Shown: positions 9,459-60,491 of the stretch, one piece after another
Layout of the letters: each line of letters starts with the position of its first letter
How positions within the stretch are numbered: position 1 is the stretch's first letter
Virus record (IMG/VR): IMGVR_UViG_3300029305_005547
Span: 32,001-96,000 of that record
DNA length: 64,000 nucleotides
Strand: one strand, 5' to 3'
From: a virus
Lineage: Duplodnaviria; Caudoviricetes
Translations under genes and position numbers: made by a program
Notes under the pieces: generated by a model
Database searches by the model: none
Told to the model about the DNA's origin: nothing
What the model saw: the letters and a program-made list of their open reading frames with translations, nothing else

Positions 9459-9518
9459 GAATCTGTAAGTCCCGAGAAATATCAAGACTTACAGAAAACT
9501 TACTTAACTAAATTCCGT
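9459..9518 (-). repeat. dispersed hairpin element copy 1 (truncated, no cassette)
   Basis: minus strand ACGGAATTTAGTTAAGTAAGTTTTCTGTAAGTCTTGATATTTCTCGGGACTTACAGATTC matches the copies at 24.8, 39.3 and 60.1 kb but lacks the TATTTARCTAAATAGTAA end. Confidence 0.9.
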
Positions 9519-9604
9519 GACAACTTCACTATCACATCTATTTTAGATTAATACAAATCGTGATATAAATTATATCAATATTTTACTTATTTATTTTGTA
9601 GAAA

Positions 9605-9613
9605 TATATTATT
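9605..9613 (+). promoter_or_regulatory. putative early (virion-RNAP) promoter motif TATATTATT
   Basis: exact copies upstream of ORFs at 9605, 16585, 34406, 35932, 54902 and 58392(-); variants at 67 and 32113; resembles phiKZ early TATATTAC. Confidence 0.6.
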
Positions 9614-9643
9614 TCTATGAATAAAATATAGGAGGTACTTACA

Positions 9644-10006
9644 ATGGATGTAAGAATTCAAGTTGGTGACTATGTAAGACATTTCAAGAGAGAAACGCTC
9701 TCTGAAGAAGCAAAGGAAATACCTATGTATTTATATAGAGTATTAGCTATTGCTAAACATACTGAAACAGGGGAAGAACTTGTCATTTATCAGGCACAAT
9801 ATAATGATAAGCAAGTTTATGCTAGACCGAAAGATATGTTTTTATCAGAAGTTGATAAAGAAAAATATCCTGATATTAAACAAAAATATAGATTGGAAAA
9901 GGCATCTCCTCTTGAAGTTGCTTTGTGCGTAAGTAAGAATTGTAAAAGTATGGATGCTCTTGCATCTTTAGTATCTTTTGTGAATGGATTAGATCATGAA
10001 ATTTAA
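9644..10006 (+). CDS. DUF1653-family protein
   Basis: YVRHFK...[21 protein letters not shown]...[16 protein letters not shown]. Confidence 0.8.
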
Positions 10007-10015
10007 GGAGATAAT

Positions 10016-10615
10016 ATGAAACTAAAATTATTTACAGTTCAGTATCCTGATGTTCTTTATAAAATAATGCAAAATGGTTATTATAGAACGGATATGTCTA
10101 AAACAGATTCATTCTTTTCTGACCATTATGGATTTATGATTGAACAAATGATTGATAGACATGTAGAATTTCCCAAAGGATTTTCAGACCCTTTTAAAAA
10201 CCCACCAGTATGGGCTTGGTACATATATGATGGTGAAAACAAAGTTCCTGATAATTTAGAAACTTGTGGTGTTGGTGTAGCAGGAGAAGAATATGTCTGT
10301 ATTGAATTTGAAATTGAAGAAGATGATGTTTTATTATCTGATTTTGATGCATGGCATAACGTCCTTAATAATTCATGGTATGAAGGAAGTTTATCAGAGC
10401 CTGAATATGATGCATTACATGAATGGTATGATAGATTACCTGGTAAGGAGAAAGAAATTCTTAAAACTATAAGTTGGGAACGAATTTTCGATATCGAGAA
10501 GTTTAAGAATGAATGGACTTCTAGAGGTTTTTATGTACAAGGTACTATTTGGGAATTGCGTAAGGAAATGATTACTAATGTACGTAAATTTGTAGCAAAA
10601 GAAATGGAAGAATAA
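10016..10615 (+). CDS. DUF3841-like protein
   Basis: PVWAWY ... VLLSDFDAWHNVLN ... SWERIFD ... VQGTIWE. Confidence 0.7.
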   Translation: MKLKLFTVQYPDVLYKIMQNGYYRTDMSKTDSFFSDHYGFMIEQMIDRHVEFPKGFSDPFKNPPVWAWYIYDGENKVPDNLETCGVGVAGEEYVCIEFEIEEDDVLLSDFDAWHNVLNNSWYEGSLSEPEYDALHEWYDRLPGKEKEILKTISWERIFDIEKFKNEWTSRGFYVQGTIWELRKEMITNVRKFVAKEMEE

Positions 10616-10729
10616 TTCTGAAATTTAAGAGAAAGGATTTATTTTGTCAGTAGATCCTTTCTTTTTTTGTAATAATTTTCAATTTAAAAAACTACACTCA
10701 TTTAATCATAGGAACTAAAATGAGAAAGG

Positions 10730-57614: not shown

Positions 57615-58361
57615 TTAGCCAAAACTAAGACTCTCAGTTCTCTCTTCGTTAATATCTTTTATTTCATAATCTTTTTGTGCGAAAGTTAAATTTTCATGCA
57701 TTAAATTATATGAATGAATATTTTTATAAATTGTTTCCGCAATATCTGTTGACACATAAATTTCATCAAAATCTATGTTATCCCCATATAAATAACTAAG
57801 TGCCCATTCTAAGTCTTGTATACAACTAGAAAATATACCTTTCACTGAATATCCATTCATAAACTCTTCAACATATTCTCCAAAGAATCCTCCCATATAC
57901 CAATTTTTATTATAGAACGATCTTATTATTTCTGGAGTTAATTTATGTTGCCCTAAAATAAATATTTCATCCATTAATTCATTAGTGTCATCATAGGTTT
58001 CACAATTCTCATATTCTTGTAAGAAATTGAAAACTGCGATTAAATCTATTATTATAGGAAGAAGTCTTATTGGATGTTTTAATTTTAGAGCTTCTTTATT
58101 TAAAATGACGAAATTTCCACAATAATTTGACATAAGTGAGTATTCTATATCAATTGTATCACCATTATTCATAAAAGGAGGTAATTCCATTTCATAATAT
58201 TCATCATAATATTCATGAACTGGTTCAGTTATTCTCATATTTTCAGTTATACCTTCGACAAATTTAAGATACCAATCTTTATCAAAATACTCGACAAATT
58301 TAAGATACCAATCTTTATCAAAATACTTATCTTTTAATTTGGTCATTAATCTAAAACCCAT
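57615..58361 (-). CDS. hypothetical early protein with a 12-aa tandem duplication
   Basis: GGAGG SD, TATATTATT at 58392-58400 (-). Confidence 0.65.
   Translation of the reverse strand: MGFRLMTKLKDKYFDKDWYLKFVEYFDKDWYLKFVEGITENMRITEPVHEYYDEYYEMELPPFMNNGDTIDIEYSLMSNYCGNFVILNKEALKLKHPIRLLPIIIDLIAVFNFLQEYENCETYDDTNELMDEIFILGQHKLTPEIIRSFYNKNWYMGGFFGEYVEEFMNGYSVKGIFSSCIQDLEWALSYLYGDNIDFDEIYVSTDIAETIYKNIHSYNLMHENLTFAQKDYEIKDINEERTESLSFG
58255..58326. repeat. perfect 36-bp tandem duplication
   Basis: TCGACAAATTTAAGATACCAATCTTTATCAAAATAC x2. Confidence 0.9.
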
Positions 58362-58451
58362 ATTATATATCCTCCGAAACTATTCTAAATAAATAATATA
58401 TCATTTCGGGAAATAAATGTAAGGAGTATCAAATTGATACTCCTTACAAAT

Positions 58452-59291
58452 TTATCCAAATATTTCTTCGTTAATACCTGCAGACTCAATTAAATATACT
58501 GCTTCTTCAAACGAAATTTCGTCATTAACAAGACTTTCACAAATCATTGAAAGAATATGATATTCTTCATTTACAGACTCTGTAACAGGTTTAGCATCAG
58601 TATTGATAAGAGGCTGATCTGATTCTGCCCAAGACTTAAGAGTACCCATAATTTTACTCATAGTATCTTTTACTATCTTAAGAGCTGAATCACCTGTAAT
58701 TTCTTTACCTCTAATTTTACTAATTTTTGCAAGAGCATATGGTGCCCATGCGGTTGCCTTTGCAACACCTTTAACAAGATTCTTATCATCACGTACAGCT
58801 GCACCTGCTGCAATAACTCCTTTTAATACATTATCCATCGTACCGAGGGTAGCAAGTGCTACAGGCCATCCAATAGTCCAAACTTCAAGAGCCATAACGT
58901 CAGACTTAAGTTCGTCAAGTCTGTCAATATTTTTCTTAAGTTCTTTTTCCATTCTTTCAGGATCACCTTTGAATTCTTCTCGAATTTTATTTTCTTTATT
59001 ACTTATTATTTTATTAGCAATAACTTCAGATGATTTTGATATAGGATATGTTGCAACACCAGCAGCTTTTTTAGCTACATTTGCAGTAGTTTTAACAGCA
59101 GGTCCAATTTTTTCATTAGACTCAGCTTTCTTATAGGTATCTACAACTTTATATTTTGCTGAAACTGCTTTATCTTTAATAGCTGTAGCGGTTTTCTTTG
59201 TTCCTTCTATCGTTTTAAGACTAGCACGCCCTAATGATCCTTTAACGCTTTCTTGAGCGATTAAAGCACTAAGTTCTTCAAATGATGGCAT
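58452..59291 (-). CDS. putative inner-head protein with C-terminal ICES-module
   Basis: late promoter 59322-59334 (-); ILSMICESLVNDEISFEEAVYLIES. Confidence 0.6.
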   Translation of the reverse strand: MPSFEELSALIAQESVKGSLGRASLKTIEGTKKTATAIKDKAVSAKYKVVDTYKKAESNEKIGPAVKTTANVAKKAAGVATYPISKSSEVIANKIISNKENKIREEFKGDPERMEKELKKNIDRLDELKSDVMALEVWTIGWPVALATLGTMDNVLKGVIAAGAAVRDDKNLVKGVAKATAWAPYALAKISKIRGKEITGDSALKIVKDTMSKIMGTLKSWAESDQPLINTDAKPVTESVNEEYHILSMICESLVNDEISFEEAVYLIESAGINEEIFG

Positions 59292-59426
59292 ATATCAATC
59301 ACTCCTTTATATTTTTATACATTAATTTACTGTTTTTCAATACAATTTTCAGCAATTTACATTATTATAAATACATATGTTTTTAAAATGCATTTTAAAA
59401 TATAAAATAAAGAAAGGGTTATAACC

Positions 59427-60068
59427 ATGGCAAATTTTGAGTATCTGTCAGAATCTGTTTCTGACATTTTATTTGAAAATTCTTACGGTTATCTTACTGA
59501 GGGAGCAACTCTTGACATGAACAAAAAGTTACGTGAACTTCAGGAAGAGTACAAAGATGCCGTAAAAGATATTAAGAAATCTTATAAGGATAAGGACGCA
59601 AATGGTGTTAAAACAAAGTGTGACAAACTTATCGATCTTATTGATAAGTATGAAGCTGAAATTGATGACATCAAGGACACATTCGGAAGTGCTGTATGCG
59701 GTGCTTTGTTCCAGTCATTCATGAGCCATATAAAGGCTTTCCTTATCGGCATACCTACATTTAGTATCGGTACACCTTTAAGCTATATTAAGGATATCGT
59801 TGATATGGTTGTTGGTGTTATGGAGCAGTGGAAAAAGGATGAAGAGATCACTCCTGATATTTTAAATGCTCGCCGTGCTAAAATTAAGGGTCTTATCAAG
59901 GAAATGAAACGCTGTATCAAGAATTATAAGAAGGATCTTCTTGAAGCTCTCGGGGAAAAAGAAGTAAAAGAGTCTGTTGAAGAAATCAAACTCAACATTT
60001 ATGAATCTTGTCATGCAGGTGAAATTACTGAGGCAGAAAGAGATATTCTTCTTGGTATTGTTGAGTAA
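59427..60068 (+). CDS. putative inner-head protein with C-terminal IYES-module
   Basis: late promoter 59358-59370; IKLNIYESCHAGEITEAERDILL. Confidence 0.6.
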   Translation: MANFEYLSESVSDILFENSYGYLTEGATLDMNKKLRELQEEYKDAVKDIKKSYKDKDANGVKTKCDKLIDLIDKYEAEIDDIKDTFGSAVCGALFQSFMSHIKAFLIGIPTFSIGTPLSYIKDIVDMVVGVMEQWKKDEEITPDILNARRAKIKGLIKEMKRCIKNYKKDLLEALGEKEVKESVEEIKLNIYESCHAGEITEAERDILLGIVE

Positions 60069-60079
60069 GGTTTTGTTGT

Positions 60080-60160
60080 GACGGAATTTAGTTAAGTAAA
60101 ATTTCTGTAAGTCTCGATATTTCTCGGGACTTACAGATTTCTTATTTAGCTAAATAGTAA
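60080..60160 (+). repeat. dispersed hairpin element copy 4
   Basis: identical to copy 3. Confidence 0.95.
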
Positions 60161-60491
60161 TGGACCTAGTGGATATAGGTTTCAGCCTACAGTTGGAAAT
60201 GGATGGAATAGTTCTACACTAAGAGTACAAAAATTTGTAAATAGTAGAATTTGTATTATAACAGGAACTTTAGATGGAAGAAGTGCAACTAATGCTGTAG
60301 CATGGACATATAATACAGGAACAAATGATATTCCTATTCCAATGGGTCAACCATACTACCAAATTTTTAATACTAATACTCATACATGGGAAACCGCTGG
60401 TTATTATGTAAATAATTCAACATATTATTTTTCTGCACCAAACTATGGTGGTAATACGCGTTATTCAATCAATATAGCATATTTATATTAA
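60150..60491 (+). CDS. start-less silent tail-fibre tip cassette C (113 aa, absent from ORF track)
   Basis: hand translation after TAG: LNSNGPSGYRFQPTVGNGWNSSTLRVQKFVNSRICIITGTLDGRSATNAVAWTYNTGTNDIPIPMGQPYYQIFNTNTHTWETAGYYVNNSTYYFSAPNYGGNTRYSINIAYLY*. Confidence 0.7.
   Translation, partial: LNSNGPSGYRFQPTVGNGWNSSTLRVQKFVNSRICIITGTLDGRSATNAVAWTYNTGTNDIPIPMGQPYYQIFNTNTHTWETAGYYVNNSTYYFSAPNYGGNTRYSINIAYLY

Follow-up and report, generated by a model that had tools for sequence, protein, structure and literature searches.

The 64,000-nucleotide stretch of DNA analysed here, called the window throughout, corresponds to bases 32001–96000 of the phage record IMGVR_UViG_3300029305_005547 (Duplodnaviria; Caudoviricetes), a genome of 278,849 bp from animal-faeces metagenomes that is 100% complete by CheckV and has a GC content of 32%. 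The window contains copies of an 83-nucleotide (nt) hairpin element, delimited by an 18-nt L box and an 11-nt R box, that head start-less frames for tail-fibre tips. These elements are probably the silent slots of a dispersed system, in which one expression module and many silent tip cassettes serve a single tail fibre. The comparison of assembled contigs has shown that tips are joined to the N-terminal module at the DNA level, at the R box, and that the module changes slot, with the breakpoints in the L and R boxes. A fuller model, in which a lytic jumbo phage lets a unit of promoter and 5´ half-gene hop among 16–27 slots by means of an Xer-type enzyme and two different short sites, which would pair in a folded, attC-like single strand, is offered as tentative and is rather doubtful in all its parts together.

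The hairpin element

Four copies of an element of about 80 bp had been reported in the window by a first-pass annotation made from the sequence alone, and all four are real. Their hairpin core, CTGTAAGTCTCGATATTTCTCGGGACTTACAG, recurs with 0–1 mismatch at window positions 9463–9494(−), 24824–24855(−), 39334–39365(+) and 60105–60136(+), and was found in none of 100 shuffles. The third and fourth copies are, as claimed, identical over exactly 83 nt. The four elements are the following (window coordinates):

39308–39390 (+): empty-slot element; L box 39310–39327 (ACGGAATTTAGTTAAGTA), hairpin 39334–39365, R box 39379–39389 (CTAAATAGTAA = L-N-S-N)
60079–60161 (+): empty-slot element; L box 60081–60098, hairpin 60105–60136, R box 60150–60160
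24800–24880 (−): empty-slot element; L box 24862–24879, hairpin 24824–24855, R box 24800–24810
9463–9519 (−): decayed element; L box and hairpin retained, R box gone, no cassette behind

A search of the whole genome, as suggested in the same annotation, recovered 18 copies (13 on the + strand and five on the − strand, four of them in the window), spanning 18.5–172 kb, or about 155 kb, of the record. Each element is built of a G-rich tract, the L box, 6 nt, a 14-bp hairpin, 13 nt ending in TAG, and the R box, whose 11 nt provide the codons L-N-S-N/K. In the silent slots the spacer between both boxes is about 53 nt long and has stops in all frames, and the L box by itself closes the three reading frames (TAG, TAA, TAA). 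In the lineage of the record (the reference lineage), the inner hairpin with its T tail scores as an intrinsic terminator. The terminator-like hairpin, combined with the three-frame stops, should keep the cassettes silent. Two of the 18 copies are decayed: an insertion of 1 nt interrupts the R box of the one at genome position 96119, and the one at window 9463(−), with a single C>T change that leaves a G-T pair in the hairpin, has lost the R box. The copy at window 24800–24880(−) reads TAACT, rather than the usual TAGCT, at one stem position.

The predicted DNA folds are stable, with −15.8 kcal/mol (z −6.4) for the element at 39308–39390 and −18.9 kcal/mol (z −8.0) for that at 24800–24880(−). 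Since the L box can pair with a stretch that begins shortly before the R box and runs into it, the element as a whole forms an imperfect palindrome of about 70 nt. Between the reference lineage and a second one (lineage 2, described below), this outer L/R stem is kept by one compensatory A-T to T-A change and two wobble-to-Watson–Crick changes; the centre varies in lineage 2, as against a perfect 14-bp hairpin in the reference lineage. The sense strand is the better folder in the reference lineage only, not in lineage 2. No Rfam family was matched in the window at the gathering threshold, and element orientation bears no relation to GC skew.

The 13 nt on the 5´ side of each L box (e.g., window 39295–39309, 60066–60080 and 24881–24893(−)) are G-rich and nearly C-free, with a variable sequence. 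Their composition is 44% G and 6% C over 19 copies, including the L box of the module, and 54% G and 1% C over 29 copies in lineage 2, against a genome background of 16% G and 16% C. This tract could be Shine–Dalgarno (SD)-like, Chi-like or G-quadruplex (G4)-like. Furthermore, paralogous genes at window 59427–60068 (ending ..ILLGIVE*) and genome ~142300–142941 (ending ..LLDMVE*) each lie directly 5´ of an element, which suggests, from the arrangement of the sequences, that gene-plus-slot units were duplicated together.

Silent tip cassettes

The three complete elements of the window end in a TAG stop followed by the R box, which opens frames of 108, 457 and 113 amino acids in the same register, in agreement with the earlier description:

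39379–40752 (+): silent tip cassette, 457 amino acids; distal tail-fibre part with Peptidase_S74 intramolecular chaperone
60150–60491 (+): silent tip cassette, 113 amino acids; first start codon at codon 65, no SD
24484–24810 (−): silent tip cassette, 108 amino acids; Gp53-like_C/H-type-lectin-like tip fold (model)

The same organization holds across the genome, where 16 of the 18 elements head a tip frame of 94–457 codons, beginning CTA AAT AGT AAN (L-N-S-N/K) directly after the TAG and always in one register. Given about 0.076 stops per random codon at 32% GC, these 16 open frames cannot be a product of chance. None of the cassette frames has an SD; the first start codon often lies tens of codons in, and one copy has no start at all. 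As noted previously, the window cassettes lack a properly placed SD, in contrast to the 35 of 41 long open reading frames (ORFs) of the window that are preceded by an SD-like 4-mer; GGAGG-type SDs are present on most genes. The 457- and 108-amino-acid cassettes have a GTG or ATG at codon 5.

To judge by their sequences, the cassette frames are C-terminal parts of tail fibres, on the grounds of Peptidase_S74 chaperones, HxH...YLPLSGGT repeats, alignment with tail-fibre PHROGs at the ends of long fibres, and the Gp53-like_C/H-lectin-like model of the 108-amino-acid window cassette, so the expected resemblance to receptor-binding ends is borne out. The 457-amino-acid ORF is indeed a distal fibre part with an S74-type chaperone (Peptidase_S74, 3e-12); it aligns with the C-terminal third of tail-fibre PHROGs, and its start (LNSNMSSYLPLTGG) is paralogous to the expressed tip at genome 137332. 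No family was matched by the 113-amino-acid cassette, and its AlphaFold model, built without an alignment, was discarded as too poor (predicted local distance difference test score of 40). The cassettes sit among housekeeping genes, including those for a Dda-like helicase, a DHH phosphoesterase and a PolB-like protein. In one silent orthologous pair the pN/pS ratio is about 0.09 (16 synonymous and five non-synonymous differences).

Five cassettes (genome 99871–101048, 118839–120400, 125017–125850, 125955–127100 and 171852–172900) end in ..LSGTTLTIT* and are followed, 8–12 nt on, by a conserved gene with its own ATG and GGAGGT SD, starting MSIIVNGTTIPT.. This looks like a two-gene cassette, consisting of an adaptor tip and a separate distal protein.

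The expression locus

The first-pass annotation had predicted, elsewhere in the genome, a constant fibre gene in which CTAAATAGTAA would lie in frame ahead of a tip. This gene exists outside the window, at genome 136210–138090. It is complete (626 amino acids), has a promoter-like motif, an AAGGAGG SD and an ATG, and contains the in-frame CTAAATAGTAA at 137332 (codon 375), where the junction reads ..LLQNQIDT-LNSN-MSSYLPLSGG... This is the only CTAAATAGTAA in a coding context outside the elements. The left boundary of the locus is marked by the only free-standing L box of the genome (135681–135698). The expression slot (genome 135681–137342) thus consists of an L box, 1633 nt and an R box, where the silent slots have an L box, the ~53-nt spacer and an R box. 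The 1.63-kb module comprises a terminator, a divergent ORF of 57 amino acids, the promoter, the SD and codons 1–374; the module, the complete fibre gene and the recombinase described below are each present in a single copy in the genome.

At the left end of the module, a second L-box core (GTTAAGTAA) is found 19–20 nt after the first (genome 135682 and 135722; L026:9822–9877 in a lineage 2 contig), and the spacer between the two cores (AAACAAAAC) is kept in both lineages; this second core may be a putative accessory binding site. The phage-specific promoter-like motif TATTCtAAATAAATAATATATCA occurs upstream of the fibre gene (genome 136051), at window 58381–58403 and at ~55 other genome sites, 5´ of genes; it is also located about 60 nt 5´ of the silent elements at genome 19254 and 27867. 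Just 3´ of the expressed fibre gene, a start-less, beta-rich frame of 113 codons (genome 138375–138716) overlaps the end of a small ORF and has no element ahead; the frame could represent an orphan tip or result from a frameshift.

Rearrangements between strains of the reference lineage

Strain comparisons were made on assembled contigs (Logan contigs for public runs). Homologues of the N-terminal fibre part with 95, 94 and 71–74% identity align through LLQNQIDTLNS(N/K) and are unrelated from the next residue onwards. In contig L025, which encodes one of these homologues (P0001), bases 51–1709 correspond to genome 135681–137345 (94.4%), exactly from L to R. Its left flank is that of the spacer copy at genome 96119, i.e., the module occupies another slot than in the reference, and its tip is a homologue of the silent cassette at genome 171852 (67.5% amino acid identity); the conserved downstream gene comes next, and then a further element.

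Run X10, which yields the homologue P0002, has the left flank of the reference and a different tip. In runs X9 and X10 the reference tip is lacking, and coverage breaks off precisely with the final base of the R box. For X9, the L box of the module appears to follow the orthologue of the region 5´ of element 143000, with a junction of only 28 nt. Several other joints with sides of 22–37 nt in the contig mapping were aliases of other element copies or paralogues and were rejected as rearrangements. Assembly chimeras are an unlikely source of the fusions, because assembler k-mers exceed the L and R boxes in length and independent samples show in-frame fusions.

Rearrangements in lineage 2 and the origin of the junction

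The shuffling at the LNS junction that the first-pass annotation had anticipated is seen in two lineages. In lineage 2, the relatives P0006–P0008 (66% identity in the N-terminal part) carry three different tips after ..QIDELNCN. Their genomes contain a homologous element of the same length (GGAACCAATTTTGTTAAGTTAAC...ACTTACTTAACAAAACTGCAAC), the R core of which (AAACTGCAAC) is the junction in their own fibre gene, and a lone L box lies 5´ of that gene. The box sequences differ between lineages and yet match between module and elements within each one; that is, they co-vary. Three JAEIGA01 contigs, from a single metagenome assembly of lineage 2, contain one module and 29 copies of the element, of which 27 head start-less N-C-N.. 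frames of 58–217 codons; a recombinase 74% identical to that of the window is encoded on the same contig as the module.

Two lineage 2 contigs provide both arrangements. The order is flank-L-MODULE-R-tipA-L-spacer-R-tipX in L031 and, with the same flank, flank-L-spacer-R-tipA-L-MODULE-R-tipB in L026. TipA is 98.7% identical in both, and the alignments share 22 nt in the L box and 15 nt in the R box. P0006 thus has as its expressed tip one that lies silent in L026. As the contigs stand, the difference requires a crossover in L and another in R, each of them between direct repeats. A single inversion cannot yield these arrangements, and inversion in general does not explain the strain comparisons. 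The proposal that cassettes are fused to a constant N-terminus stood as regards the fusion at the junction; it did not stand as regards the moving part, which is the promoter with the N-terminal module, exchanged for the hairpin spacer, instead of a cassette brought to a fixed gene.

In a third, more distant lineage the LNSK junction is present with no L box or elements nearby. On this comparison, LNS is taken to have marked a domain boundary ancestrally and to have been recruited as a site afterwards.

The recombinase and other enzymes

An intact tyrosine recombinase had been pointed out in the window, and the assignment is confirmed:

32172–33197 (+): Xer-type tyrosine recombinase, armless, candidate catalyst of the L/R crossovers (PF00589, Phage_int_SAM_4)

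The protein matches PF00589 with 128 bits, has the catalytic R/H-x-x-R/H/Y motifs and scores 231 bits with the XerA-type NCBIfam model (cut-off 220); no arm-binding domain was found. Integron-integrase models fail on it (TIGR02249, 83 bits with a cut-off of 265; PRK15417, 51 bits with a cut-off of 435). It is the only site-specific recombinase of the genome and lies about 6–7 kb from the nearest elements, with unrelated genes between, and about 70 kb from the module. Genome searches gave no match for a serine recombinase (PF00239), for the reverse transcriptase of diversity-generating retroelements (RVT_1), for the Y1 HUH transposase of IS200/IS605-type elements (Y1_Tnp) or for the RecA family. 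An SMC_N/Rad50-like (SbcC-like) protein is encoded. In a related jumbo phage (L092:3945–7247), the anaerobic ribonucleotide reductase NrdD is interrupted by an intein with a LAGLIDADG endonuclease.

Proposed mechanism and alternative explanations

In the proposed system, only the tip behind the slot that holds the module would be made, with the conserved N-terminal fibre part of 374 codons presumably attaching to the virion. The strain comparisons show that two crossovers, one in each box, put the module before another tip and leave a spacer behind. This could happen by reciprocal exchange, or a circle could be cut out at one box and enter again at the other; the outcome would be a change of host range. 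That these crossovers are conservative and site-specific, and made by the single Xer-type tyrosine recombinase of the phage, is a possibility to which we give slightly less than an even chance; the alternative would be general recombination of the phage acting on the short boxes. The intact start-less frames, the low pN/pS of one silent pair and the co-variation of the boxes argue for a regular use of the system rather than rare accidents.

Several observations weigh against this interpretation. Other jumbo-phage contigs encode homologues of the recombinase (55–60% identity) without any element closer than 10 kb, so the enzyme is not bound to the system. Dyad symmetry is not obvious in either box. 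The near-identical strains X3 and X7 have the reference arrangement, other cassette pairs have pN/pS values of 0.5–1, and a fused form of the two small window cassettes was not found in protein libraries, although this last point is a weak one. Moreover, the evidence consists of contigs, not reads, which applies to population heterogeneity, circles and the switching rate.

It could be argued that no dedicated switch exists, and that the elements are dispersed regulatory or terminator repeats similar to the PeSL repeats of T4-type phages, with general homologous recombination occasionally reshuffling the fibre parts. Cleavage of the hairpin by the Rad50/SbcC-like nuclease would perhaps help, and host selection would fix rare recombinants. 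PeSL-mediated shuffling is documented (PMC2839356, PMC4122927), and the terminator score of the inner hairpin would be expected of such repeats, although the terminator-like tail is not conserved in lineage 2. Likewise, the SMC_N/Rad50-like protein would fit, but the RecA-family search was negative. Variant positions occur in all combinations among the 18 copies, as gene conversion would give, and differing arrangements were found only between strains about 4–6% apart in the module. However, the L and R homologies are just 18 and 11 nt long and yet hold every observed breakpoint, with none in spacer or coding sequence, and the boxes of module and elements co-vary between lineages. Furthermore, 16 and 27 start-less frames have been kept open in the two lineages, and purifying selection is strong on at least one silent pair; this would need frequent expression. 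We therefore consider this explanation unlikely.

Expression of the cassettes in place is far less probable still. It would involve a T4 gene-60-like hop over the hairpin, non-AUG initiation or trans-splicing to the fibre mRNA. In the hop variant, ribosomes on a short upstream ORF would take off at AGT-TAA and land at AAT-AGT. The AGT before the TAA of the L box does match the AGT of the R box, 66 nt apart; nevertheless, the L and R box sequences that supply these codons differ in lineage 2. A start codon is present in the take-off frame a few codons 5´ in 10 copies, while five of the 18 have none at all in that frame. Promoter-like motifs precede two silent elements. No RNA family was found by Rfam in the window, and the DNA-level fusion directly seen in several strains accounts for the open frames. 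Despite the matching codons, translational bypass of the T4 gene-60 type was thus rejected, since upstream starts are inconsistent and fusion of the DNA accounts for the frames. A suppressor tRNA or the reassignment of stop codons was also discarded, the whole phage genome having no tRNA gene and TAA also blocking the frame.

Comparison with known systems

To our knowledge, the switching of receptor-binding tips by DNA rearrangement is known only from compact inversion loci with 2–6 alternatives (Gin, Cin, Min and Rin). The dispersed system shares with Min (p15B), Gin (Mu) and Cin (P1) the joining of alternative fibre C-termini to a constant 5´ part by DNA rearrangement, for host range. Those are serine invertases with clustered loci, acting by inversion only and without hairpin spacers, whereas no serine recombinase is present here.

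Another close counterpart is the Rin shufflon of Bifidobacterium prophages, where an XerD-like recombinase acts on 11-bp asymmetric rix sites to combine a constant N-part with variable C-parts; it is a compact locus next to rin, with inversion between inverted rix sites and 3–5 tips (Mavrich et al. 2018, PMC6109161). Both systems have a constant N-part, start-less variable C-terminal genes, an 11-nt boundary site before each and an armless XerD-like tyrosine recombinase. Unlike Rin, 16–27 tips are scattered here over about 155 kb among housekeeping genes, and 13 of the 18 elements are in direct orientation. Each tip is headed by an 83-nt L-hairpin-R element, the module itself is bounded by boxes and changes slot, the recombinase lies some 70 kb from it, and the strain differences are module/spacer swaps between direct repeats.

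In the Vsa system of Mycoplasma pulmonis, with its recombinase HvsR, expression-site switching moves a promoter and the 5´ coding end before silent genes. In the Vpma system of Mycoplasma agalactiae, a single promoter is put before one of several silent genes by the Xer-like recombinase Xer1 (PMC2268961). As in Vpma and Vsa, the moving part here is the expression signal, the sites are short and in the 5´ region, and the recombinase is an Xer-like tyrosine recombinase. Vpma and Vsa differ in encoding bacterial surface lipoproteins, clustered beside the recombinase gene and switched by inversion; they are not viral and have neither dispersal nor hairpin slots.

A partial likeness to integron attI/attC sites (PMC3458562) lies in the promoter-less ORFs, each behind an imperfect palindrome that keeps its base (the boxes) and, in lineage 2, varies at its centre, in the Xer-family recombinase and in the one fixed promoter unit; excision of a circle followed by re-entry would explain the swaps. 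In contrast to integrons, there is no IntI-type integrase and no cassette array beside the recombinase gene, the fusion is translational, and breakpoints occur on both sides of the palindrome. The PeSL promoter–terminator repeats of the large, lytic T4-type phages (PMC2839356, PMC4122927) are similar in being dispersed intergenic stem-loops of 50–80 nt with a terminator-like hairpin and modular shuffling between close relatives. Those repeats flank complete genes with their own starts, while the repeat described here stops in frame within a coding sequence, and the gene halves behind it lack starts and depend on one module.

In Neisseria pilE/pilS and Borrelia vlsE, a fixed expression site is overwritten non-reciprocally by RecA-dependent conversion from silent cassettes. 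The many silent 5´-truncated cassettes, the one expression site and the nearby G-rich tract (compare the pilE G4) are shared features. Here, however, the module occupies different slots, and a tip that has been displaced is retained whole, as a silent cassette.

A literature search found no paper describing this layout. The features that appear to be new are the dispersal over about 155 kb, the number of tips, the L-hairpin-R slot and the mobility of a promoter plus 5´ half-gene between two different sites.

Neighbouring genes, relatives and host

An ORF of 3142 amino acids (window 40846–50274(+)) lies directly 3´ of the 457-amino-acid cassette; its first 1385 residues have no Pfam match, and it probably encodes a giant structural or fibre protein. 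A GH25 lysozyme (Glyco_hydro_25, 9e-21; window 25287–26294(−)), probably the endolysin, adjoins the cassette at 24484–24810. Between elements 96119 and 99826, genome 97347–99458 encodes a protein of 703 amino acids with a PolB-type ..DTDS.. motif; of this element pair, it is the left one that carries the module and a tip in L025.

No close relative was found among deposited phages. In IMG/VR, an exact-pattern scan for the element gave 0 matches and the relatives of the fibre N-part are distant ones only. The closest homologues of the recombinase carry the labels Lachnospiraceae or Clostridium; thus, the host is likely to belong to the Clostridia.

Biological significance

One uncultured gut phage lineage stores 16 receptor-binding tips and its sister lineage 27, scattered among replication genes. 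If the model of a hopping module is true, one genome would reach many host-range types without large inversions, through a new layout of site-specific recombination, namely the two-site exchange of a half-gene. If, moreover, the exchange is enzymatic, it would represent a natural recombinase-mediated cassette exchange between two short hetero-specific sites (18 and 11 nt), of interest for genome engineering. The findings bear on metagenomic host prediction, on strain typing and on gene callers, which truncate or skip start-less cassettes. Finally, such a system, if true, would explain the wide potential host range of a large lytic phage in a diverse gut community.

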